A stretch of DNA of 64,000 nt from an uncultured Alphaproteobacteria bacterium (GCA_963826605.1 CAWGXN010000001.1:1495835-1559834), one strand, 5' to 3'; numbered from the stretch's first letter, positions 531 through 51,014 are shown. The notes: generated by a model from the sequence alone, not told the origin. Made by a program: numbers and translations.

Positions 531-1382
531 ATGGCACGCACCCAGGCAGCACGGGCACGCACGCAGGCGCACAGGACGAACGGCGACGTCCGCCGCCGCA
601 CGGCCGGCGCTCGACGTCGCGACCGTTCTGGGCCTCGCCAGCGGGTTCGGGCTGGTCGCCATCGCAATGGTGCTGGGCGGCTCGCCCCGCATGTTCCTCG
701 ACGCGCCGTCGCTGCTGATCGTGGTTGGCGGCACGTTCGGCGTCACGCTGACCTGCTTCAGCCTGCGCGACATGGCGGACCGTCCACCGCACCATCGCCA
801 AGGCCGTCGTTCCATTCCGTGCCGCGCGCCGATGCAGAGGCGCGCCGCATGCTCGCCGCTGGCCGAGGAGTGCCCGCAAGCAGGGCATGCTGTCGTTCGA
901 GCAGTCGCTGCCGGCGCTGCGCGGCAACCCGTTCCTTACCAAGGCGATCTCGATGGTGGCCGACGGCTTCCCCGTCGAGGAGGTCGAGCGCGTCATGCGC
1001 CGCGAGATCGACGAGATGACCGGCCGCCACCGCAAGAGCGCGTCGGTGCTGCGCAAGGCCGCCGAGATCGCGCCGGCGATGGGCCTGATCGGCACGCTGA
1101 TCGGCCTGGTCCAGATGCTCGGCAACCTCGACGACCCGTCCACGATCGGCCCGGCGATGGCGGTCGCGCTGATGACCACCTTCTACGGCGCGGTTCTGGC
1201 CAACATGCTTTTCGCGCCGCTGGCCGCCAAGCTGGAGCGCAACTCCGCCGAGGAGGCGCTGGTCTACAACGTCTATCTGCTGGCCGCCGTCTCGATCGGG
1301 CGCAAGGAGAACCCGCGCCGGCTCGAGATGCTGCTCAACGCCCTGCTGCCGCCCGCCCATGCGCGTGCGCGTCTTCGACTGA
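531..1382 (+). pseudogene. motA: flagellar stator protein MotA/PomA family, multiply frameshifted
   Basis: Pieces in three frames: '[49 protein letters not shown]', then '[13 protein letters not shown]...[54 protein letters not shown]', ending 'NPRRLEMLL'. A TGA lies at 1380 in an alternative frame. Exact start and stop are uncertain. Confidence 0.6.
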
Positions 1383-1404
1383 TAGCCCGGAGAGTCACCG
1401 CGAC

Positions 1405-2804
<1,400 letters not shown>

Positions 2805-2851
2805 GCCGACCGGGCCTGCGGCAGTGCCGCGATGACGGCACCGCGTGACCC

Positions 2852-4988
2852 ATGGCTGACGCACAGGCGACGGCACCGGCGGCCGGCGCAGAGAACGCGG
2901 CCGGCTCGAACCCGCTCGAGGCGATCGGCGGGTTCCTGCGCAAGCACGGCGACATCGCGCTCGCGCTCGGGCTGGTCACGCATCCTGGTCGTGCTGATCC
3001 TGCCGATGCCCGAGCTGGCTGCTGGATTTCGCCCTCGCGATCTCGATCACCTTCTCGGTGCTGATCCTGATGACGGCGCTGTTCATCTCGCGGCCGCTCG
3101 ACTTCACGTCCTTCCCGACGGTGCTGCTGATCGCGACGATGCTGCGTCTGGCGCTCAACCTGGCCTCGACGCGGCTGATCCTGGCCAACGGCCACGCCGG
3201 CCCGGCGCCGCCGGCCACGTCATCGAGGCGTTCGGCAATTTCGTCATCGGCGGCAACTTCGTGATCGGCATGATCGTCTTCGCGATCCTGGTGATCGTGA
3301 ACTTCGTCGTCATCACCAAGGGCTCGGGCCGCATCGCCGAGGTCGCGGCGCGCTTCAGCCTGGACGCCATGCCCGGCAAGCAGATGGCGATCGACGCCGA
3401 TCTGTCGGCCGGCCTGATCGACGAGAACGAGGCGCGCACGCGCCGCAAGCAGCTGGAGGACGAGACCAGCTTCTTCGGCGCGATGGACGGCGCGGCCAAG
3501 TTCGTGCGCGGCGACGCGATCGCCGGCCTGCTGATCACCTTCATCAACGTCATCGGCGGCATCGTCATCGGCGTCGCCCAGCAGGGCCTGTCGATCGGCG
3601 ACGCGGCGCACACCTACACCGTGCTGACCATCGGCGACGGGCTGGTCACCCAGATCCCGGCGCTGATCGTCTCGACCGCGGCGGGCATGCTGGTGTCCAA
3701 GGCCGGCGTCACCGGCTCGGCCGACAAGGCGCTGTTCGGCCAGCTCGGCGGCTATCCCACCGCGCTCGGCCATGTGCGTCGTTCCTGACTGCCGCCCTGG
3801 CGCTGCTGCCCGGCATCCCGATGCTGCCCTTCCTCACCCTGTCGGCCCTGACCGGCACGGTCGCGTGGCACCTGCGCGCCCGCAGGGCGCAGGAGGCGCG
3901 AGCGCGAGCGCGCAGGCCGAGGCCGGCAGCCGCCGCCCCGCGCGGAGGAGCCGATCGCCACCGCGCTGCAACTCGACGACGTCCGGCTCGAGCTGGGCTA
4001 CGGCGCTGCTGTCGCTGGTCAACCCCGGCGACGGGCCGATGCTGACCGACCAGATCAAGGCGCTGCGCCGCCAGCTCGCCAACGAGATGGGCTTCGTCAT
4101 GCCCGCCGTGCGCATCCAGGACAACATGCAGCTCGGCGCCAACACCTACGTCATCCGCATCAAGGAGATCGAGGCCGGGCGCGGCGAGCTCCGCCCCAAC
4201 ATGCTGCTGGTCATGGACCCGCGCGGCGAGCCGATCGCGCCTGCCCGGCGAGGACACGACCGAGCCGACCTTCGGCCTGCCCGCCATGTGGGTCGCCGAC
4301 AGCCACCGCGAGGAGGCCGGCTTCCGCGGCTACACCGTGGTCGACCCGCCGACGGTCATCACCACGCATCTGACCGAGGTCATCAAGGACAACATGGCGG
4401 AGCTGCTGTCCTACGCCGAGACCCAGAAGCTGCTCGACGAACTGCGGCAAGGAGCACCAGAAGCTGGTCGCCGACCTGGTCCCGGCGCACATCTCGGTCG
4501 GCGGCGCTGCAGCGCGTGCTGCAGAACCTGCTGTCCGAGCGCATCTCGATCCGCGACCTGCCGACCATCCTCGAGGGCGTCTCCGAGGCCTGCGGCTTCA
4601 CCCAGCACACCACCGCCGATCACCGAGCACGTGCGCGCCCGCCTCGCCCGCCAGATCTCCGACACGGCGCACCGGGCCGGACGGCTACGTCCCGCTGGTC
4701 ACCTTGTCGCCCGAGTGGGAGCAGGCGTTCGCTGGAATCGATCACCGGCCAGGGCGACGACCGGACAGCTCGCCATGGCGCCGTCCAAGCTGCAGGAGTT
4801 CATCGCCAAGGTGCGCGAGACGTTCGACAGGCTGGCGCTCACCGGCGAGACGCGCGGCGCTGCTGACCAGCGGCGCGACGCGCCCCTACGTGCGCTCGAT
4901 CGTCGAGCGCTTCCGCCCGGCCACCATGGTGATGTCGCAGAACGAGATCCACCCCAAGGCCCGGATCAAGACGCTGGGGCAGATATAG
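2852..4988 (+). pseudogene. flhA: flagellar export apparatus protein FlhA, at least 10 frameshifts
   Basis: Recognisable FlhA blocks scattered across frames: '[32 protein letters not shown]', '[48 protein letters not shown]', 'MLTDQIKALRRQLANEMGFVMPAVRIQDN', 'VVDPPTVITTHLTEVIKDNMAELLSYAETQKLLDEL', 'LQRVLQNLLSERISIRDLPTILEGVSEA', C-terminal 'PYVRSIVERFRPATMVMSQNEIHPKARIKTLGQI*'. Confidence 0.75.
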
Positions 4989-5972
4989 ATGAGGCTCAAG
5001 AGCTTCACCGCGCCGAGCATTGGCGAGGCGATGAGCGCCGTCCGTGCCGAGCTGGGCGACGACGCGATCATCGTCGCCACGCGCAACACGCCCGACGGCG
5101 GCGTGCGCGTGACCGCCGCGCTGGAGCCGCGCGAGGCCGACGCCTCCGTGGCCGGGCCCTACGGCACGACCGCCACCGAGGAGGCGATCGACTTCCTGCG
5201 CCGCGCGCTCGACTATCACGGCGTGCCGGTGAAGACGAGCGTGCGCCTGCTCGACACGGTGCGCGCCCGCGACGTGGAGGACAAGGTACTGGGGCTGGGC
5301 GCCGCGCTGGACGACGCGTTCCACTTCGCCCCCCTGCCCGCCCTCGGGCACCCCAAGCCGCTGATGCTGGTCGGCCCGCCCGGCGCCGGAAAGACGGTCT
5401 CCACCGCCAAGCTCGCCGCCCGCGCGGCGCTCGCCGGGCACGACGTCGCCGTCGCCACCGCCGACACGACGCGTGCCGGGGGCGTGCAGCAGCTCTCCGC
5501 CCTCACCGGCGTTCTGGGCATCGAGGCCATGGTCGCCGACACGCCGGAGCGGCTGTTCATCGCCCTCAACGACCGCGCGCCCGCCGCGCTGACCTTGATC
5601 GACACGCCCGGCACCAACCCGTTCGACAAGGACGCGCTCGACCGGCTGGGCGAGCTGGTGGCGTGCGCCGGCGCCGAGCCGGTGCTGGTCCTGGCCGCCG
5701 GAATGGACGCGCGCGAGGCAGCCGAAACCGCGCGCGCCTTCGCCGCCGTCGAGCCCACGCGGCTGTTGTGCGCCCGGCTCGACGCGGCGCGGCGGCTTGG
5801 CGGGCTGATCGCCGCTGCCGAGGCCGGAGGGCTCGCCTTCTGCGACGCCGGCACCAGCCCATCCATCGCCCAGGGGCTCGCGCCCCTCAACCCGGTCGGA
5901 ATCGCCCGCCTGCTGCTGCGCGAGCCGCGCGGCGCCGACGCCGACCTCTTCCTTGCCGAGGCCGCCCAATGA
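4989..5972 (+). CDS. flhF: flagellar biosynthesis GTPase FlhF (short form, intact)
   Basis: 327-aa intact ORF. SRP-GTPase motifs 'LVGPPGAGKTVSTAKLA' and 'LIDTPG'. Starts immediately after the flhA stop. Confidence 0.8.
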   Translation: MRLKSFTAPSIGEAMSAVRAELGDDAIIVATRNTPDGGVRVTAALEPREADASVAGPYGTTATEEAIDFLRRALDYHGVPVKTSVRLLDTVRARDVEDKVLGLGAALDDAFHFAPLPALGHPKPLMLVGPPGAGKTVSTAKLAARAALAGHDVAVATADTTRAGGVQQLSALTGVLGIEAMVADTPERLFIALNDRAPAALTLIDTPGTNPFDKDALDRLGELVACAGAEPVLVLAAGMDAREAAETARAFAAVEPTRLLCARLDAARRLGGLIAAAEAGGLAFCDAGTSPSIAQGLAPLNPVGIARLLLREPRGADADLFLAEAAQ

Positions 5973-6766
5973 ACACCGCCATCTCGTCGATCCTGCCGCA
6001 CCCGGCGCGTCGCGTCGCGGGGCGCAACGTCATCACCGTGGCCTCGGGCAAGGGGGGCGTCGGCAAGACCTGGTTCTCGATCACGCTGGCGCATGCGATG
6101 GCGCGCGCCGGGCGGCGCGTCCTGCTGTTCGACGGCGATCTGGGCCTCGCCAACGTCGACATCCAGCTCGGGCTGACGCCGGAGCACGACCTCGACGCGG
6201 TGCTGGCCGAGCGGGTGGGGATCGACGAGGCGGTCACCCGCTATGCCGAGGGCGGGTTCGACATCCTCGCCGGCCGGTCGGGCTCCGGCACGCTTGCCGC
6301 CCTGCCGCCGGCACACCTGACGGGGCTGCGCGACCAGGTGCTGGAGCTCGCCGAAAGCTATGACGTCGCGATCATGGACCTGTCCGCCGGCATCGAGCAG
6401 CCGGTGCGCGTGCTGTCGGCTGCGGCGGCCGTGCGGCTGGTCGTCACCACCGACGAGCCGACCGCGCTGACCGACGCCTACGCCTTCATCAAGCTCAGCG
6501 TGGCGCGCGTGCCGACGGAATCGCTGCGGGTGGTGGTCAACATGGCGCCGTCGGACCGCGAGGGCCGCCACACCTACGCCACGCTCGCCAAGGCATGCCG
6601 GCACTTCCTGGGGATGACGCCGGCGCTGGCAGGGGTGGTACGCCGCGACAACCATGTGCGCGACGCGATCCGCAGCCAGGCGCCGCTGCTGATCCGCCAC
6701 CCGAACTGCCCGGCCGCCGCCGACGTGATCGCCCTGGCGCGGGGGCTGGAGCCGGCCGGTGGCTGA
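5969..6766 (+). CDS. flhG: MinD/ParA-family flagellar number regulator FlhG/FleN (MotR)
   Basis: ATGA overlap with the flhF stop. Deviant Walker A 'ASGKGGVGKTW'. Intact, about 265 aa. Confidence 0.8.
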   Translation: MNTAISSILPHPARRVAGRNVITVASGKGGVGKTWFSITLAHAMARAGRRVLLFDGDLGLANVDIQLGLTPEHDLDAVLAERVGIDEAVTRYAEGGFDILAGRSGSGTLAALPPAHLTGLRDQVLELAESYDVAIMDLSAGIEQPVRVLSAAAAVRLVVTTDEPTALTDAYAFIKLSVARVPTESLRVVVNMAPSDREGRHTYATLAKACRHFLGMTPALAGVVRRDNHVRDAIRSQAPLLIRHPNCPAAADVIALARGLEPAGG

Positions 6767-33521: not shown

Positions 33522-34160
33522 TCAACGGCCGGGCGGGCCGCCGGTTCCCAGCTCGGCGGCGAGGCACGCGGCGAGCGCATCGACAGCCGCCGCAACGGCC
33601 GGGCTCACGCGGCTGCCGATGTCGAAGCGCATCCCCTCGACGGCACAGACGATGCAGGCCGGCGGCAGCGTGCCAAGCGTCCGCGCCAGCTCGATGGCCT
33701 CGTGAAGCCCGAACCCGTGGGTCGACATGCCGAACCGCGCGGCGGGCAGCGATCGCGCCGCCGCGTCGAAGCGGCGGATCGTCCCTGCCGGCGCGCCGGA
33801 CGCACAGGCATCGACCAGCCATACCGCCGCCGCGCGCTCCATCAGCGCAAGCAGCGCCGTCGCCTCGCCATCGGATTCGCAAATCAAGATGTCGTCGCTG
33901 GGCGCAGGCTGACCCCCCTCCCCAGCCCTCCCCCTCAAGGGGGGAGGGGGCGTTGCGTTGCTGCCCGTGTGCGCGATGGCAACATCGCGGCCGGGCTCGA
34001 TGCACCGTCGAAAGTCCCGGCGTTCCCTCCCACGTTGAGGGGGAGGGACAGGGTGGGGGGTAAGCAGAGCGGCCAGCCGCTGGGTGACGAGGCGACCGGC
34101 GGCGTCGTCGCCCCGATCGGGATTGCCGATGCCGATCACGACGCGGCGCGGGGCGTTCAC
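33522..34160 (-). CDS. hupD: [NiFe]-hydrogenase maturation endopeptidase (HupD/HybD-like) carrying an in-frame 54-aa repeat-derived insertion
   Basis: GTG start 4 bp after the hydA stop. 'VVIGIGNPDRGDDAAGRLV' (GxGN...DDGxG) and 'VWLVDA' motifs. Repeat family A copy 3 (33912-34063) is inserted between 'RLAALL' and 'DDILICESDG' without stops. Confidence 0.7.
   Translation of the reverse strand: MNAPRRVVIGIGNPDRGDDAAGRLVTQRLAALLTPHPVPPPQRGRERRDFRRCIEPGRDVAIAHTGSNATPPPPLRGRAGEGGQPAPSDDILICESDGEATALLALMERAAAVWLVDACASGAPAGTIRRFDAAARSLPAARFGMSTHGFGLHEAIELARTLGTLPPACIVCAVEGMRFDIGSRVSPAVAAAVDALAACLAAELGTGGPPGR
33912..34063. repeat. composite palindromic repeat family A, copy 3 (intragenic, in-frame)
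   Basis: 'cccccctccccagccctccccctcaaggggggaggggg' ... 'ccctcccacgttgagggggagggacagggtgggggg'. Confidence 0.8.
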
Positions 34161-34164
34161 CGCG

Positions 34165-35455
34165 TCAGCCCCGGTCGATGTCGAGCCGCAGGAAATGCGT
34201 CGAGCACGAGATGCAGGGGTCGTAGTTGCGCACCGTCTGCTCGCAGCGATGGCGCAGATCCTTGTCGGGCAGGTCGAGGAACCCGCCCACGAAACTCGCC
34301 AGATCGGCCTCGATGGAGGCCTGGTTCTGCGATGTCGGCGGCACGATCTTCGCCGTCGCGATGGTGCCGTCCGCGTTAAGCCCGTAGCGGTGATAGAGGA
34401 GCCCGCGCGGCGCCTCCGTCGCGCCGTACCCGGTGCCGGCGCGCGGCACGACCTCGACCGCCGGCCGGTCGGGCCGCTCGTACGCGTCGATGAGGCGCAG
34501 CGCTTCGTCGCAGGCAAACAGCACCTCGACGGCCCGCACGACGATGCTGCGATACGGGTTGGTGCAGACCGGCCCGAGCCCCGCCTCGCGCGCCGCCTCC
34601 CGCGCCAGCGGCGACAGGCGCTCGAGAGTTGAGGCATAGCGCGCGAGCGGCCCACAGAGATAGTCGCCGCCGTCGGTCATGCGCGAATGCAGCGCGGTCG
34701 AGCGCGCCACGTGGGACTCCTCGAAATGCGCCTCGTAGTCGCGCACCGCGATGTCGAGCCCGCGGTTCGACACGATGCGGCCGTCATTGAACGGGTACTC
34801 GTCGGGATGGCGCAGCGCGACAAAGGTGTAGTCGCGCGACCGCTCGGGGAAGTCGAACCCCGCCACCCAGCGCACGGTTTCAAGCGCGTCGTCGCGGGCG
34901 CGCTTCAGCGTTTCGGCGAGCGGCGCGAGCTCGCGCTTCGTCGGCACGCGGTAGAACCCGCCGACGCGCACGTTGATCGGGTGGATCTCGCGCCCGCCGA
35001 GAAGGGCGACGATCTCGTTCCCCGCCTTCTTCAGCGCGAGGCCGCGCGTCACCTCCGGGCCGTGGTCCCTGGCCATCTCGATCGCGCCGTCATAGCCGAG
35101 GAAGTCGGGCGCGTGCAGCATGACGACGTGCAGCGTGTGGCTTTCGATCCACTCCCCGCAATAGAGCAGCCGCCGCAGCGCGCGCAGCGGCCCGGTCACC
35201 GCCACGCCGAGCGCGTCCTCCATCGCGTGCACCGCGCTCATCTGATACGCGACCGGGCAGATGCCGCAGATGCGCGAGGTGATGTCCGGCGCCTCCGCAT
35301 GGTCGCGGCCGCGCAGGAACGCCTCGAAAAATCGCGGCGGCTCGAAGATCGAAAGCTCGGCACGCGCGCACCTTGCCGTCGCGCACCACGACCTTGAACG
35401 CGCCCTCGCCCTCGACCCGCGCCAGATAGTCGACCTTGATGGTCCTACGGGTCAT
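34165..35455 (-). CDS. hydA: [NiFe]-hydrogenase large (alpha) subunit, group 3-like (one frameshift near 35360)
   Basis: N-terminal '[12 protein letters not shown]'. L1-like '[11 protein letters not shown]'. C-terminal L2 '[11 protein letters not shown]'. About 430 aa. Confidence 0.8.
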
Positions 35456-35528
35456 GCCGCTCGCTCTCCTCGCGGAAGCCCGGCGCGTTGCCGTTGAAGT
35501 TGCGCCAGACGCTGGCTGAAGCGCGCGC

Positions 35529-36232
35529 TCATCCATGCCGAGCATCGTTCATCCAGGCGCTGAGCGAAGGTGCGTTCGGCGTCTCCTTCGGGCCGTAGCA
35601 GCCGTAGCAGCCGCGGTCGTAGCCGGGGCACAGCGCGCCGCACCCGGCATGGGTCGCGGGGCCCAGGCAGGGCGTGCCGTGCGCCACCATCACGCAGACA
35701 TTGCCCTTCAGCTTGCACTCGATGCAGACGCTGTGCGGCGGCGTCACCGGCCGGCGCCCGGCGAGGAAGGCCGAGATCACCTCGACGAGCTGGCGCTTGG
35801 AGATCGGGCAGCCGCGCAGCTCGAAATCGACCTTCACGTGGTCGGCGATCGGCGTCGATGTGTCTCGAGCGTCTGGATATAGTCGGGCCGCGCATAGACC
35901 ACCGACGCGTATTCCTTCACGTCGGCGAAGTTGCGCAGCGCCTGGATGCCGCCCGCCGTCGCGCACGCCCCGATGGTCACGAGCGTCCTGGAGCGCAGCC
36001 GGACGTCGCGGATGCGCGCCGCATCGTGCGGCGTGGTGATCGAGCCCTCGACCAGCGACAGGTCATAGGGCCCCTTCACCGTGCCGCGCGTCGCCTCGGG
36101 GAAATAGGCGATCTCGACCGCGCCGGCGACAGCCAGCAGCTCGTCCTCGCAATCGAGCAGGGTGAGCTGGCAGCCGTCGCAGGACGCGAACTTCCATACG
36201 GCGAGACGCGGCTTGCGCGGTTTCGCGGCCAC
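35529..36232 (-). CDS. hydD: [NiFe]-hydrogenase small (delta) subunit (one frameshift near 35880)
   Basis: '[21 protein letters not shown]' proximal-cluster cysteines. C-terminal '[11 protein letters not shown]...[30 protein letters not shown]'. GTG start with AAGGAG 8 nt upstream. Confidence 0.75.
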
Positions 36233-36233
36233 G

Positions 36234-37074
36234 TCAGATCTCCTTCGTCGCCAACAGCGTGCGGATGCGGTCATAGCGGAACACCGGCCCGTCGCGACAG
36301 ACGAACACGGTGCCGAACTGGCAGTGGCCGCACAGCCCGATCGCGCATTTCATGTTGCGCTCCATCGACAGGTGGATCGCATCGTCCGTCACGCCTGCGT
36401 CCCCCAGCGCGGCGACCGCGAAGCGCATCATCACTTCGGGCCCGCAGACCAGGGCGATGGCGTGCAGCGGGTCGAACGCCGCGCGCGGGATCAGCGCGGT
36501 CACCACGCCGACATGGCCGCGCCAGTCGCCCGTCGCGTGGTCGACCGTCACCTCGATGTCGATGTCCAGCCGGCGGCGCCACTGCTCCAGCTCGCGGCGG
36601 AACAGGATCTCGTCGGGGCTGCGCGTGCCGTAGAGCAGGCAGATCGTGCCGTAGCGCTCGCGCTCGGCCAACAGCCGGTAGAGCGCGGGACGCAGCGGCG
36701 CGAGTCCGAGCCCGCCGGCGACGACCACCACGTCGCGCCCGGCCGCCTCCGCGATCGGCCAGCTCGGTGCCGAACGGGCCGCGCAGCCCGACCGCATCGC
36801 CCGGCGCGAGGCCCGTCAAGGCGCGCGACACGGGCCCGACGGCGCGAATGGTATGGACCAGCGCCCCGCCGGCGGCGGGATCGCCGCTCACGCTGATCGG
36901 CACCTCGCCGACGCCGAATACGCCCAGCATGTTGAACTGGCCGGGCGCATAGCCCGCCTCGTCCGGCGCCTCGATGTCGAGCGTCCAGGTTTCCGCCACC
37001 TCGCGCCGGCGGCGGGCGACACGGGCGACGCGCGGCACCATCGGGTCGGGCTCAGCCACCGTCCGGCCGTCCAT
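36234..37074 (-). CDS. hydG: hydrogenase gamma subunit, FAD/NAD(P)-binding with [2Fe-2S] (one frameshift near 36790)
   Basis: '[17 protein letters not shown]' NAD-binding motif. C-terminal '[12 protein letters not shown]' 2Fe-2S site. Confidence 0.7.
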
Positions 37075-37528
37075 AGACGTCGAGAATCTGCAGCCGGGTC
37101 GCCTGCAGCCGCTGGGCGATGACCGGCAGGAAGCGCATCAGCACGTCATATCCGAGATCGTGGTCCGCCTCGCACTTCTCGCGCAGGCACCTCGCATCCA
37201 TCGCGATGGCGCGCACCAGCACCAGCGCCTTCGCGTCGTAGGTCCAGCGATAGGGCGGGATCAGCCAGGACACGCCGACGATCTCGCCGGCGACGATGGT
37301 CTGGAAGGTGACGGCACCGCGGCCCGGCGCCGTCACCTCGAGCGCCACGCGCCCGTGGCGCAGCAGGTAGAAGCTGTCTGCCGGCTCGCTTTCGCGGAAC
37401 AGGTACTGGCCCGCCTCGAACCGCACGTTCTTCGCGCAGCCGCAGATCAGGTCGCAGAACGCGTCGGGCAGCCCGGCGAAGAACGGATGCTCGCGTACGA
37501 TCCGGTCGATGCCCTCGATCTCCACCAT
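37052..37528 (-). CDS. cyclic-nucleotide-binding domain protein (no DNA-binding domain)
   Basis: 158 aa. '[29 protein letters not shown]' cNMP-binding beta-barrel. Embedded between hydB and hydG. Confidence 0.7.
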
Positions 37529-37537
37529 GGCCCCTCC

Positions 37538-38656
37538 TCAGCGCGACGGCGTCTCGCGGATCGCGCGTACCTCCTCGGTGATGTCGATACCGACCGGGCA
37601 CCAGGTGATGCAGCGCCCGCAACCCACGCAGCCGGACGTGCCGAACTGATCGTACCAGGTCGACAGCTTGTGGGTCATCCACTGGCGATAGCGCGAGCGG
37701 GTGGAGGCGCGCACCGAGCCGCCGTGAATATAGGAGAAATCCATCGTGAAGCAGGAGTCCCAGCGGCGCGACCGCGACGTCTCGGTTCCGGTCAGGTCGC
37801 TGGAGTCCTCGACCGAGGTGCAGAAGCAGGTGGGGCACACCATCGTGCAGTTGCCGCAGGACAGGCACCGCTGCGCCACCTCGTCCCAGCGCGGATGATC
37901 GAGATTGGCAAGAAGGAGCTGGTGCACATCCTCCTCGTGCATCTCGCGCCCCATCGTGGCGGCGGCGTGCGCGACGGCCGCCTCGGCCGCGGCCGTATCG
38001 GCCTCGGTCGCCGCCCGCTGCGGCAGGCCGGCCAGGATTTCGCCGCCCCTTTCGGAGCCGACCTCGACCACGAAAGACCGTTCGCCCTCGACCACGATCT
38101 CGGTCAAGGCGAGGTCGAACCCGCCAGTCGCCTTGGGGCCGGCCTTCATCGAGACGCAGAAGCAGGTACCGCCCGCCGTGCCGCAATTCACCGCGACCAC
38201 GAACGCGCGCTCGCGCCGCGCCTTGTAGTCGGGATCGACGTGGGCGCCCTCGAGGAACACGCGGTCCTGGATCGCGATGGCGCCGAGGTCGCACGACCGC
38301 ACCCCGATGAAGGCGAAGCGCTCCTCGCTGGGCGGCTCGGGCGTGACCTCCACCCCGTCTTCCGTGCGGCGGGCCTGCCACAGGCGCAGCACCGGCGGGT
38401 GCAGGAAGCGCTTCCAGCTATGCGGCCCGACCGCGTAACCGAACAGCGCGTCGTCCTCGCGCCGTGCGAGGCGATAGGTGCCGCCGTCCTGCGTGTCGGT
38501 CCAGCCGCGCGGCAGGTCGGCGACCCCGGCGACGTCGTCATAGACGATCGCCTGATCGCGCAGGGTGGGGCCGATCAGCCGATAGCCGCGGTCGCGCAAT
38601 GCGCCAAGAAGGGCGTCGAGCGCGTCGATGCCAATCACGACGGGATCGCCGGTCAT
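37538..38656 (-). CDS. hydB: hydrogenase beta subunit (4Fe-4S dicluster protein, sulfhydrogenase HydB-like)
   Basis: 372-aa intact ORF. '[16 protein letters not shown]' and '[12 protein letters not shown]' ferredoxin-type Cys motifs. Confidence 0.75.
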
Positions 38657-38764: not shown

Positions 38765-39616
38765 CTACGCGCGGCGTTGAGTGGTCGCGTCACCCTCGAC
38801 GCGGACAAGCCGCCCCTGCAGCTGGTCGGCGAGCCTGACCAGCTTCGGCCCCCAGCGCGTCTCCAGGGTTTCGCGCGTGAAGTGGAAGACGGTACCGGTG
38901 CAGTTGAAGGCCAGCACCCGCGAATGGCCGACGGGCACGAACGGCACCCCGACCGCGCAGGTCTGGGGCGAGAACGCCTCCATGGCGAGGCAGAAGCCAC
39001 GCCGCTCGATCTCGGCGAACGCGGCGTCGAGCCGGGCGCCGAGCTTTTTCCACTGCTTCGGCATCGCCTCTGCAAGCCGCGCCATCGTGGCGGCCCGGTC
39101 CTGCGCGTTCAGCCCGGCGAGATAGGCCCAGCCCAGCGTCGACGTCGCGATCGGGATTCGCATGCCGACGAAGATGTTGCGCGTGAGCCCCGCCTCGCCG
39201 CGGGCGATCTCGACATAGGTCATGTCGAGCCCGTCCGCGATGCCCAGCCCGATCGTCCCGCCGCTCTCGTTGGCGAGCTCGGCCATCAGGCGCCGTGCGA
39301 GGACCGGCGCCTCAAGGGTGGAGAGCGCCGCGTAGCCGAGGGACAGCACGCCCGGTGCGAGCTCGTAGGTCCCGATCCGCTCGTCGTAGTCGAGGTAGCC
39401 GAGCTCGGCGAGGGTGAAGGTGAGGCGCGACACGGTCGCCTTCGGGATGCCCGTGCGGGCCGACAGCTCCGCATTGCCGAGGAACGCCTCGCCCGGGCGG
39501 AAAGCGGACAGGATCTTGAGGCCGCGGGCAAGCGCGGTGTTGAATCGCGGATCGCGCTTCGGCGCGCCCCGCCTGGCGCCGCGCGGCTTCCCAGGATCGG
39601 CCCCGGCGCGGGTCAT
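38765..39616 (-). CDS. IclR family transcriptional regulator
   Basis: 'ALARGLKILSAFRP...LSARTGIPKATVSRLTFTLAELGYL' HTH plus IclR effector domain. Confidence 0.8.
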   Translation of the reverse strand: MTRAGADPGKPRGARRGAPKRDPRFNTALARGLKILSAFRPGEAFLGNAELSARTGIPKATVSRLTFTLAELGYLDYDERIGTYELAPGVLSLGYAALSTLEAPVLARRLMAELANESGGTIGLGIADGLDMTYVEIARGEAGLTRNIFVGMRIPIATSTLGWAYLAGLNAQDRAATMARLAEAMPKQWKKLGARLDAAFAEIERRGFCLAMEAFSPQTCAVGVPFVPVGHSRVLAFNCTGTVFHFTRETLETRWGPKLVRLADQLQGRLVRVEGDATTQRRA

Positions 39617-39650
39617 CGCACCCCGCACGACGGGCGGCGGACCCGGCCGA

Positions 39651-40409
39651 TCACGTCTCGACGCTCGTGCCGCGCCAGCGCAGGAAGTACTGCTCGAGCC
39701 GCAGGAAGCCGAAATTGATGCAGTAGCCGAGCAGGCCCAGGGTGAGGATCCCGGCATACATCTCGGCGACGCGGAAGACCCGCTGCATGTCGAGGATGAA
39801 AAAGCCGATGCCACTGTTGCCGCTGATCATCTCGGCCACGATGCCGACGATCAGCGCGATTCCGAGGCTGATGCGCATCCCGATCAGGATGGAGGGCAGC
39901 GCCGCCGGCAGGACGATCTGGCGCAACGTCTTGAACGGCGCGATCCCGAACGTCCGTCCGGTATCGATCAGCACCGGGTCCACGCCGCGCACCCCGCCAT
40001 AGGTGTTCAGCAGGATCGGGAAGCTGCACGCCATGAACACCACGAAAACCTTCATCTCGTTGCCGATGCCGAGGATCAGGATCGCCACCGGAATGTAGGC
40101 GGAGGCCGGGATCGGACGCACGAACTCGGTAATCGGCTCCAGCAGGCGGTAGACCAGCGGAACCGTCCCCATCAGCAGCCCGACCGGAACGGCGACCGCG
40201 ACCGCGAGCGCGAAGCCGCCGAACACCCGCGCCAGCGTCGGCAGCACTTCGTGCATCAGCGCGCCGCCGTAGATGCTCTCGGCCCACAGCGTCAGGATGT
40301 CCGAAACCGGGGGAAAGGTGACCGTGTCGATCCATGCGTTGCGCGACGCGATTTCCCACATCACGAGGATCAGCGCAATCAAAATGAAGCCGGGCCAACG
40401 CCTTATCAT
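39651..40409 (-). CDS. ABC transporter permease (NitT/TauT family)
   Basis: 252 aa with six TM helices; BPD_transp_1 EAA-like loop. Confidence 0.8.
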   Translation of the reverse strand: MIRRWPGFILIALILVMWEIASRNAWIDTVTFPPVSDILTLWAESIYGGALMHEVLPTLARVFGGFALAVAVAVPVGLLMGTVPLVYRLLEPITEFVRPIPASAYIPVAILILGIGNEMKVFVVFMACSFPILLNTYGGVRGVDPVLIDTGRTFGIAPFKTLRQIVLPAALPSILIGMRISLGIALIVGIVAEMISGNSGIGFFILDMQRVFRVAEMYAGILTLGLLGYCINFGFLRLEQYFLRWRGTSVET

Positions 40410-48845: not shown

Positions 48846-48958
48846 TGCCGCCCCCTCATTAAAGCGCGACTTTAACGGTCGCCACAAAGCCCGTCAATAT
48901 CAGGAGGATATGAGAAAATCTTCATGTGCCGATTCGCGCGGCACGGGCGCAACGGCGG

Positions 48959-49935
48959 CTACCAGCGGATCAGGCTGGACGCCCAGGTGAAGCCGCCGCC
49001 CATCGCCTCGAGCAGCAGAAGCTGGCCAGGCCGGATGCGCCCGTCGCCCACCGCCTCGGCGAGGGCGAGCGGGATCGACGCGGCCGAGGTGTTGGCGTGG
49101 CGGTCGATGGTCACGACCACCTTCTCGGCCGGGAGGCCCAGCTTGCGCGCCGTGCCGTCGAGGATGCGCCGGTTGGCCTGGTGCGGCACCAGCCAGTCGA
49201 CGTCGGAGGCGGCGATCCCGTTGGCCGCCAGCGCCTCGTCCACCACGGCGGCCAGGTTGGTGACGGCGTGGCGGAATACCTCCTTGCCCTGCATGCGCAC
49301 ATGGCCGGCCTTGCCGGTGGAGGACGGCCCGCCATCGACGTAGAGCATGTCGTGCTGGCGTCCGTCGGAATGGAGGTGGCAGTGAGAGGACGCCGCGGTC
49401 GGTCTTGGCGCCCGTCCCCTCGACGGCCTGCAGCACCACGGCGCCGGCGCCGTCGCCGAACAGCACGCAGGTCGCACGGTCCGACCAGTCGAGGATGCGC
49501 GAGAAGGTCTCGGCGCCGATCACCAGGGCCGTCTTCGCCTGGCCCAGCCGGATGAAATTGTCGGCGATGTTCAGTGCGTAGATGAAGCCCGAGCACACCG
49601 CCTGCACGTCGAAGGCGGCGCCGTGGGTGACGCCCAGCATCGCCTGCACGCGGGTCGCGGTGGCGGGAAAGGTCTCGTCCGGCGTGGCGGTGGCCAGGAC
49701 GATCAGGTCGAGCGCGTCCGCCTCCATGCCGGCGGCGGCGAGCGCGCGGCGGGCAGCGGCGCAGGCGAGGTCGCGAGGTCATCTCGCCCTCGGCGGCGAT
49801 GTGGCGCTCGCGGATGCCGGTGCGCTGGACGATCCACTCGTCCGACGTGTCGACCATGCGGGCCAAGTCGTGGTTGGTCAGGATGCGTTCGGGGAGATAG
49901 GCCCCGCTTCCGACGACGGCGGACCGGAGCACCAT
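48959..49935 (-). CDS. fabH: 3-oxoacyl-ACP synthase III FabH (two frameshifts, about 49786 and 49395)
   Basis: '[47 protein letters not shown]', '[16 protein letters not shown]', '[10 protein letters not shown]', '[13 protein letters not shown]' split over three frames. Confidence 0.85.
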
Positions 49936-50985
49936 CAGGATGCGGCGAGGCTCTGCTGGACCGGCAGCTTGTCCGCGCCGAACACCTCCAGCTCCTTGGT
50001 GATCACACCGTTGAAGCCGTTCACCGCCATGTCCACCGCCACGCCGATGGCGTTGGCGAAGCCGATCGTGTCGGTGCCGCCGTGGCTCTTGACCACGATG
50101 CCGTTGAGCCCGACCAGCATGGCGCCGTTGTAGCGCCGGGGATCGAGCCGAGCGCGCAGCTTTTTCAGCGCGCGCCGGGCCAGGAGATAGCCCAGCCGCG
50201 ACGACAGCGAGCTGCGGAAGGTGCGGGCCAGGAACTCGGAATAGAGCTTGGCCGTGCCCTCGGCGGTCTTGAGCGCGACGTTGCCGGAGAACCCGTCGGC
50301 CACCACCACGTCCGACGTGCCGCGGGTGATGTCGTCGCCCTCGACGAAGCCGTGGAAGCGGATCAGGTCGGAGGCGCGCAGCATGGCGGCGGCGCGGCGC
50401 ACCTCGTCATGGCCCTTCGATTCCTCCGCGCCGACATTCAGAAGCCCCACCGTCGGCTCGGGTATGCCCAGCACGATGCGGGCGAACACGTCGCCCATCA
50501 GCGCGAACTGGACCAGATTCTCGGCGGAGCAGTCGAGATTGGCGCCGAGGTCGAGCATCACCGTCTCGCCCCGCTGGGTCGGGAAGTAGCCGGCGATCGC
50601 CGGACGATCGATGCCCGGCAGGGTGCGCAGCGACCAGCTTCGCCATCGCCATCAGCGCGCCGGTATTGCCGGCCGAGACGACGCCAGCCGCGCGCCCGTC
50701 GCGCACCGCGTCGATGGCGAGCCGCATGCTGGAATTCTTGCCCTGGCGCAGCGCCACCCCGACGCGGGCATCGTTCGACACCGCGTCTTCCGTGTGGTGG
50801 ACCGTGACGCGGTTCTTCAGCCGGCGCAGGCGCTTGAGGGCCCGGCCCATGCGCCGCTCGTCGCCGTAAAGCTGGAAATCCACGTCGGGAAAGCGCCGGC
50901 AGGCCATGGCGGCGCCCTTCAGCACCATGCCCGGCGCGTTGTCGCCACCCATGGCATCGAGCGCGATGGTCAGCCTGCCGCTCAC
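49935..50985 (-). CDS. plsX: phosphate acyltransferase PlsX (one frameshift near 50620)
   Basis: '[21 protein letters not shown]' N-terminus in one frame. '[22 protein letters not shown]...[14 protein letters not shown]' in another. Confidence 0.85.
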
Positions 50986-51014
50986 CCGGGGACCCTCCCG
51001 CACCGCACGCGCCG

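Follow-up and report, generated by a model that had tools for sequence, protein, structure and literature searches.

A conserved stand-alone protein of cyclic-nucleotide-binding fold encoded between hydB and hydG is a candidate accessory subunit of bacterial group 3b [NiFe]-hydrogenases

Group 3b [NiFe]-hydrogenases are widely encoded cytoplasmic enzymes. A role as valves in fermentation or redox balancing is discussed for them, as in hypoxic mycobacteria (PMC2799521), and they are usually pictured after the four-subunit archaeal enzyme. Here, we analyse a stretch of 64,000 nucleotides (nt) from an uncultured Alphaproteobacteria bacterium (GCA_963826605.1 CAWGXN010000001.1:1495835-1559834; the window), which carries on its minus strand an operon of this kind in which a gene for a 158-amino-acid (aa) protein of cyclic-nucleotide-binding (CNB) fold lies between hydB and hydG. 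Upstream of it, hydB (37538..38656, minus strand) is intact and encodes a 372-aa 4Fe-4S beta subunit of the AsrA/HydB/ShyB-like type (Pfam Fer4_22, E = 2.4e-33; NCBIfam sulfhyd_ShyB, 2.2e-44, and HydB, 1e-43). It matches the beta subunit of sulfhydrogenase 1 in the Protein Data Bank (PDB 9nez_B, E = 4.6e-38) and has 84.5% amino acid identity to its ortholog in the most closely related locus, L001. Downstream, hydG (36234..37041, minus strand) encodes the AsrB-like gamma subunit, which binds flavin adenine dinucleotide (FAD) and nicotinamide adenine dinucleotide (phosphate), NAD(P), and has a [2Fe-2S] cluster. The genes for the delta subunit (hydD), the alpha subunit (hydA) and a maturation endopeptidase follow in this order. 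Sulfhydrogenase subunits are the best NCBIfam hits of HydB, HydG, HydD and HydA, and the best solved structures are an archaeal cytosolic hydrogenase and the alpha and beta subunits of sulfhydrogenase 1. Thus, similarity to NCBIfam, Pfam and PDB entries supports the assignment of the operon to a group 3b context.

The CNB gene occupies 37052..37528 of the minus strand and its open reading frame (ORF), which starts with the ATG at 37528, is intact. The stop codon of hydB (37538-37540) is followed by a spacer of 9 nt (37529..37537, minus strand), GGAGGGGCC, which includes the Shine-Dalgarno sequence GGAGG, and then by the ATG of the CNB gene, giving TGA GGAGGGGCC ATG. An initial annotation, made from the sequence alone, had already placed the CNB start 9 bp after the hydB stop, and this is what we find. 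It also had the CNB stop overlapping the start of hydG, and this did not hold: the overlap depends on an upstream ATG of hydG at 37074, which the orthologous, 93%-identical locus L001 does not have. Comparison with L001 gives the conserved hydG start, MVPRVARV, at 37041, about 10 nt past the CNB stop. Whichever start of hydG is used, the CNB gene is tightly packed with both of its neighbours, and the co-transcription with hydB and hydG that had been assumed is almost certain from this tight linkage.

The ORF truly codes for protein and did not arise by chance from high GC content, because its closest ortholog (P0001, encoded in L001) is 93% identical, a set of 5.8 billion proteins contains 3638 homologs, and the ratio of nonsynonymous to synonymous substitutions (dN/dS) against the L001 ortholog is 0.10, the lowest value in the operon. 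The protein has a single Pfam domain, cNMP_binding (PF00027; residues 35-121, E = 1.3e-13), which lies above the gathering threshold, and with NCBIfam it gave just weak, sub-threshold matches to families that contain a CNB domain. Pfam found no helix-turn-helix (HTH) family in the 158 residues, and none was found in any frame. An AlphaFold2 model from an alignment of 53 sequences reached a predicted local distance difference test score (pLDDT) of 90.9 and a predicted template modelling score (pTM) of 0.84. It begins with a helical segment, continues with a barrel of eight strands that includes a short cassette helix, and closes with two helices at residues 112-121 and 123-152; it consists, in other words, of a CNB barrel with a C-terminal helix and nothing else. 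The stand-alone CNB protein without HTH that had been proposed initially is therefore borne out by ORF, Pfam and model alike.

In the model, the long helix at residues 123-152 (37073..37162, minus strand; DSSP assignment and alignment to CRP) is equivalent to the dimerisation C-helix of CRP and ends in the conserved motif LLDxYG. Column frequencies over 132 family sequences, from which all residue conservation given here was taken, are 92% for D150 and 95% for Y152. Foldseek searches of the PDB with the model returned CNB domains: 3mdp at the top, then the sensor halves of Mycobacterium tuberculosis CRP and Corynebacterium glutamicum GlxR, including their dimerisation C-helix. Judged by the model and these matches, the protein is a CRP without its DNA-binding domain. 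The resemblance to Crp/Fnr regulators (Escherichia coli CRP, M. tuberculosis CRP, C. glutamicum GlxR) covers the N-terminal barrel and the long C-helix, with Foldseek E-values of about 1e-11 to 1e-10, query-normalised template modelling scores of about 0.7 and phmmer E-values of 5e-9 to 4e-7. In contrast to them, the protein has neither the winged HTH nor the canonical Glu and Arg that contact cyclic adenosine monophosphate (cAMP); it ends at residue 158, just past the C-helix, Pfam detects no HTH and all 79 orthologs in operons have 150-161 aa.

The best solved match, 3mdp, is Gmet_1532 of Geobacter metallireducens, also a stand-alone CNB protein, solved in a structural-genomics project (phmmer E = 1.7e-13; Foldseek E = 5.6e-12, root-mean-square deviation 1.7 Å, 31% identity), and it has a similar cassette, GVSSLIKPYHYTSSARA. 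It lacks the cysteines C31, C114 and C119 of the family studied here, however, and its gene lies among genes for electron transfer flavoprotein, thiolase and short-chain dehydrogenase. Given this neighbourhood, we do not count 3mdp as a solved representative of the family embedded in hydrogenase operons, but as a cousin in structure.

The motif [VIL][VL]G[WV]SWL[IFV][PS]P, derived from 14 closer sequences, was searched for in a single genome of each GTDB species and was found, in confirmed relatives, in at least 598 species genomes. Gene order was counted by tblastn with the L001 proteins in the best 80 of these at least 598 motif-matching species loci, as far as the contigs reach. In 78 of the 80 species-representative loci the order is hydB-CNB-hydG-hydD-hydA on one strand. 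The 80 loci come from more than ten phyla and include Alphaproteobacteria, Acidobacteriota, Bacteroidota, Ignavibacteria, Planctomycetota, Chloroflexota, Actinomycetota, Nitrospinota, Zixibacteria, KSB1, Armatimonadota, Verrucomicrobiota and Binatia. L001, the closest relative with 86% nucleotide identity, and a 79%-identical locus from a metagenome-assembled genome (MAG) labelled Gammaproteobacteria (L002) both read hydB-CNB-hydG-hydD-hydA-protease. The operon copies are uniform in length (150-161 aa in 79/79) and the gap between hydB and the CNB gene, estimated heuristically, has a median of -1 nt across 79 loci. The two exceptions are MAGs of Actinomycetota (L074 and L075, one of them a Mycobacterium); in L075 the homolog adjoins genes for a nitroreductase and a DAGAT-type acyltransferase. 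A plasmid collection yielded 15 records with a 3b-like HydA. The CNB gene is found in the embedded position, some 2 kb upstream of hydA, in 11 of these; in the other four, all Streptomyces replicons, a CNB homolog is found 9-18 kb from the 3b-like HydA. One Streptomyces operon (L090) has about 125 nt between hydB and hydG and no CNB gene there.

Among bacterial group 3b operons, the five-gene layout is thus the common arrangement. The initial annotation had called the CNB gene foreign to canonical group 3b operons. This is true against the characterised prototypes, the archaeal enzyme of Pyrococcus and that of Mycobacterium smegmatis (PMC2799521), but not for bacteria at large, as the 78 species loci and 11 plasmid loci show; since most homologous bacterial operons contain the same ORF, it is no oddity of the genome in the window. 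This gene typifies a very widespread family rather than being a genome-specific invention, and for the window the result is mainly one of correct annotation. An exhaustive search of cluster representatives gave 5294 hits at E ≤ 1e-3 and 220, mostly of 150-160 aa, at E ≤ 1e-30; thousands of the homologs carry PF00027 alone. Many databases label family members 'CRP/FNR family transcriptional regulator'. The family itself is already annotated. In the literature, we found no functional study of the CNB protein of group 3b hydrogenases (Hyd-3b) and two passing mentions only: the gene of the Hyd-3b cluster has already been named HoxI (PMC12319191), and the CNB gene has been listed, no more, in Rhodococcus equi (PMC13332983).

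Among the representative-search hits, two longer ones carry Fer4_22 together with cNMP_binding. A search with one such protein (P0149) gave 12 clusters of 539-546 aa, 49-76% identical to it, in which HydB is fused at its C terminus to a CNB domain. Wide divergence at constant length shows that the gene fusion is maintained in this clade and is no read-through artefact. In one such locus (L084/L085, 6001..8184; ENA ERZ27247687 k141_1200358; JGI 3300032118) a second CNB gene, this one free, comes after the fusion gene, and hydG, hydD, hydA, the protease gene and hypF lie behind it. The fusion, the second free CNB gene and the CRP-like C-helix together suggest that the functional unit could be a pair of CNB domains on the C-terminal Fe-S end of HydB, and HydB is the likely docking partner of the free CNB protein as well. 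Proteins with two, three or five CNB domains of the same subfamily in tandem, up to 840 aa long, also exist (P0121-P0125, P0213). P0121-P0125 headed the hits of the representative search and resembled covalent dimers of the family, but we did not use them as evidence, as P0123 adjoins an efflux system of the resistance-nodulation-division/CusB type instead of a hydrogenase and the other contigs are too short. A still larger candidate fusion (P0282, 720 aa) was set aside, since its contig has the fragmented genes typical of an error-prone assembly.

The eight-stranded barrel and the cassette helix of a canonical CNB domain are present in the model and in the Foldseek matches; the ligand contacts are not. 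The phosphate-binding cassette (residues 85-99; 37232..37276, minus strand) is degenerate and has the family consensus G-W-S-W-L-x-P-P-Y-x-W-x-F-D-A. When the protein is aligned to GlxR and E. coli CRP, pairwise or by profile, the cassette Gly corresponds to G85 and the canonical, ribose-contacting Glu to V86, while the phosphate-contacting Arg aligns to W95 in the register of GlxR or to T96 in that of CRP. The canonical Gly-Glu...Arg-Ser/Thr-Ala contacts are thus missing from the protein (V86; W95/T96), and an Arg at position 94 is found in just 54% of the sequences. Conservation is high for G85 (99%), S87 (91%), W88 (96%), P92 (99%), Y93 (86%), W95 (88%), D98 (89%) and A99 (94%); position 86 is Trp in 78% and Val in 15%, and at position 94 a basic residue (R/K/H) is frequent. 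By these alignments, the canonical Glu/Arg pair has been lost and a family-specific aromatic motif is under strong constraint. With Glu and Arg gone and the aromatic motif conserved instead, classical binding of cAMP or cyclic guanosine monophosphate (cGMP) by this family is unlikely; another ligand, or a protein-protein surface, would be a more plausible use of the rebuilt cassette. Cysteines are conserved at C31 (95%), C114 (92%) and C119 (84%), and C31 and C114 are absent from both CNB copies of the HydB-CNB fusion clade. The four cluster-ligating cysteines of FNR, three N-terminal and one central, were not found; the three conserved cysteines are at other positions.

A stand-alone CNB protein is known from another hydrogenase. 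HoxI, the one CNB subunit of a hydrogenase that is established by experiment, is present as HoxI2 in the soluble, NAD-reducing group 3d enzyme of Cupriavidus necator, HoxHYFUI2 (PMC3189943); it is encoded on pHG1 of strain H16 (WP_011154015, 167 aa; L003:24836-25339). Like the protein studied here, HoxI is a CNB fold of about 160 aa without an output domain; its operon, too, encodes a [NiFe]-hydrogenase that is cytoplasmic and linked to pyridine nucleotides, and two copies of HoxI are found on the diaphorase side. The two proteins differ, however, in sequence (24% identity, pairwise E = 2e-5), in the cassette, where HoxI keeps Gly-Glu and has no WSWLxPPYxW while our family has G-W/V and that motif, and in the cysteines, of which HoxI has none. 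HoxI has the Nuo-like HoxFU as partner instead of the AsrA/AsrB-like HydB/HydG, and hoxI follows hoxW, whereas the CNB gene stands between the beta and gamma genes. Orthology to HoxI is not supported by the identity of 24%, by hhalign (probability 96.8 to HoxI, 94.8 to CRP) or by the patterns of cassette and cysteines. Since HoxI and CRP are about equally close to the family, the analogy is functional only, and the name HoxI given to the Hyd-3b gene (PMC12319191) is an analogy too. Still, the two proteins plausibly work alike.

The characterised group 3b enzymes, that is, the archaeal sulfhydrogenases (HydBGDA of sulfhydrogenase I, SHI, of Pyrococcus furiosus; Thermococcus kodakarensis) and Hyd3 (Hyh) of M. 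smegmatis, have homologous beta, gamma, delta and alpha subunits encoded in the same order; the locus tags of the four genes in M. smegmatis are consecutive (PMC2799521). They differ from the operon in the window in consisting of four subunits without a CNB chain. Indeed, the solved archaeal sulfhydrogenase entries (9nez/9nf0, P. furiosus SHI) gave no match to the CNB protein, while HydB and HydA did match.

In the reading that is supported best, the CNB protein would be a fifth, accessory or regulatory subunit which, like HoxI, sits as a dimer on the HydB/HydG module and has a non-canonical ligand site; we give this reading a probability of roughly 55%. It comes closest to the initial proposal of a subunit or allosteric regulator, which is the best-supported part of that annotation by virtue of the conserved synteny and the HydB-CNB fusions. 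We infer that the protein would be physically associated with the mature enzyme. Translational coupling would keep its synthesis matched to that of its neighbours, and it would dimerise through its long C-terminal helix and dock on the electron-transfer module formed by HydB (4Fe-4S) and HydG (FAD, NAD(P)H). The former pocket for cyclic nucleoside monophosphates (cNMP) has been rebuilt into the conserved Trp/Tyr/Pro-rich motif. Most likely, the protein therefore binds a ligand other than cAMP or cGMP, for which a pyridine or flavin nucleotide is our leading guess by analogy with HoxI, or it is a pure interface. In this way, the subunit would adjust or steady the flow of electrons from NAD(P)(H) to the active site and back. 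A bolder version, in which the aromatic pocket is a sensor that reads NAD(P)H/NAD(P)+, a flavin or a thiol redox signal, and the dimer on HydB gates electron flow in most bacterial group 3b enzymes, is possible, but we would sooner expect it to fail than to hold.

Several observations speak against a fifth subunit. The characterised enzymes, P. furiosus SHI and M. smegmatis Hyd3, work without a CNB protein and four of the 15 plasmid-borne operons have no embedded CNB gene; the protein is, therefore, dispensable for core catalysis. Some homologs, about 40-52% identical, are encoded away from hydrogenases, in Actinomycetota (L074, L075) and in Streptomyces, Embleya and other plasmid records. The family profile is no closer to HoxI (hhalign 96.8, 19% identity) than to CRP (94.8). 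A naturally occurring HydB-CNB fusion, modelled with AlphaFold2 at a pLDDT of 84.7, gave a pTM of only 0.68 and a linker of low confidence, which speaks neither for nor against a fixed interface.

Alternatively, the protein could act on HydB and HydG only transiently, in assembly or maturation (insertion of Fe-S or FAD, docking), and not form part of the mature enzyme. In favour of this, its gene keeps its place between those of two cofactor-rich subunits, core enzymes exist without its product (PMC2799521; Streptomyces L090; the solved structures), and HoxI readily dissociates from the soluble hydrogenase at high ionic strength (PMC3189943), which makes a loose association plausible. Against this stands the covalent fusion to HydB in the diverged clade, which argues for permanent 1:1 proximity and not for a chaperone acting catalytically. 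Furthermore, no chaperone role is known for CNB folds. An assembly factor is thus unlikely, if the least so of the alternatives to an accessory dimer. Less probable again is a genuine receptor of cAMP or cGMP that would switch the hydrogenase on and off by a second messenger, the 'cNMP-gated' subunit considered initially. The Pfam match above threshold, a fold that superposes on cAMP-bound CRP and GlxR, the almost invariant G85 and the frequent R/K/H at position 94 are in its favour, but a Val or Trp stands where the ribose-contacting Glu should be, the Arg-Ser/Thr pair for the phosphate is out of register with an Arg at position 94 in just over half of the sequences, and the cassette is filled with invariant aromatics. 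As its canonical Glu and Arg are replaced, gating by a cyclic nucleotide is improbable.

A thiol- or Fe-S-based sensor of redox state or O2, FNR-like in logic, that would gate the O2-sensitive enzyme by means of C31, C114 and C119 ranks lower still. The three cysteines are indeed well conserved over the 132 sequences, the protein resembles the sensor half of Crp/Fnr regulators, and group 3b enzymes are induced in mycobacterial hypoxia (PMC2799521). Yet there are just three of them, not at the positions used by FNR, and both CNB copies of the fusion clade do without C31 and C114. Finally, the protein could have been a truncated or decaying Crp/Fnr factor, either the remnant of a pseudogene or a frameshifted regulator, as the initial annotation had also considered; the 'CRP/FNR family' labels in databases and frameshifts elsewhere in the window would fit. 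This has already been refuted by the conservation of length: all 79 operon copies have 150-161 aa and thousands of homologs consist of PF00027 only. Moreover, the gene is under purifying selection (dN/dS 0.10), hydG begins 10 nt past the stop, which leaves no space for an HTH, and the HTH in an adjacent frame that a frameshifted regulator should show was found in no frame. A HoxI-like accessory dimer is accordingly ranked above assembly factor, cNMP gating, cysteine-based redox sensing and truncated regulator.

If most bacterial versions of the enzyme carry a conserved fifth protein of sensor fold, their regulation, cofactor preference or stability may depart from the archaeal model, and the CNB gene should then be included whenever bacterial Hyd-3b is expressed in another host or purified to recycle NAD(P)H with H2. 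Should the non-cNMP sensor be true as well, abundant enzymes of soil and sediment would be five-subunit, allosterically controlled redox valves and not the four-subunit Pyrococcus type of surveys. A CNB protein as fifth component will not surprise hydrogenase specialists who know HoxI; on the evidence of gene order it flags a candidate for a nearly universal bacterial subunit.

The operon in the window deserves a comment of its own, since indels interrupt all three of hydG, hydD and hydA, which the initial annotation had overlooked. Compared with L001, the two halves of hydG are in different frames owing to +1 nt at about 36768. In hydD, the gene of the small (delta) subunit (35448..36232, minus strand; identified by profile hits and comparison with L001), there are +2 nt at about 35863, and, in its tail, +1 at about 35547 and +2 at about 35514, which together give rise to a stop at 35529. 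hydA (34165..35455, minus strand; identified likewise), for the [NiFe] large (alpha) subunit, has +1 nt at about 35369; the motif DPCISCSTH is present, and the ortholog in L001 matches PDB 5yxy_A (E = 3.6e-64) and 9nez_D (4.4e-60). Intact frames for all structural genes are thus not found in the window; hydB and the CNB gene are intact. Downstream of the shifts the segments still have 88-91% protein identity to L001 and dN/dS values of 0.16-0.21, and the shifts are therefore either very recent or not real.

Essential genes elsewhere in the window are split as well. plsX (49935..51003, minus strand) is divided into two ORFs in different frames, which cover positions 1-115 and 140-322 of the Pfam profile FA_synthesis, and in fabH (48900..49727, minus strand) only the N-terminal domain is in frame and the C-terminal half is not. 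At about 667..4950 on the plus strand, motA, flbD (for a sigma-54 activator) and flhA pass from one frame to another again and again, flhA at least seven times; their flagellar neighbours flhF (4989..5972) and a minD/fleN-like gene (5953..6766) are intact. Because plsX and flagellar genes are split too, the frameshifts in hydG, hydD and hydA are probably indels of assembly or sequencing and not signs of decay, and the hydrogenase is probably intact in the organism. We rejected a pseudogenised operon with hydB and the CNB gene as sole survivors on the same grounds, that is, the 88-91% identity and dN/dS of 0.16-0.21 downstream of the shifts and the shifted frames of plsX, motA, flbD and flhA.

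The gene after hydA (33522..34160, minus strand) encodes the hydrogenase maturation endopeptidase of the HycI/HoxW type (Pfam HycI, E = 1.9e-07; TIGR00072, 5.1e-24). At about 33800..34050 (minus strand) some 55 aa with many Pro, Gly and Arg residues (TPHPVPPPQRGRE...PLRGRAGEGG) are inserted in frame. Read on the other strand, this insert gives PLEGEGWGGG-like peptides and resembles an intergenic-type repeat of Alphaproteobacteria; the ortholog in L001 has a shorter related stretch. Directly upstream of hydB lies a gene (38765..39814, minus strand) whose translation looks, by eye, like an IclR-type regulator. Further upstream follow an ATP-binding cassette transporter and an acyl-CoA dehydrogenase, and these flanks differ from those of the orthologous locus L001.

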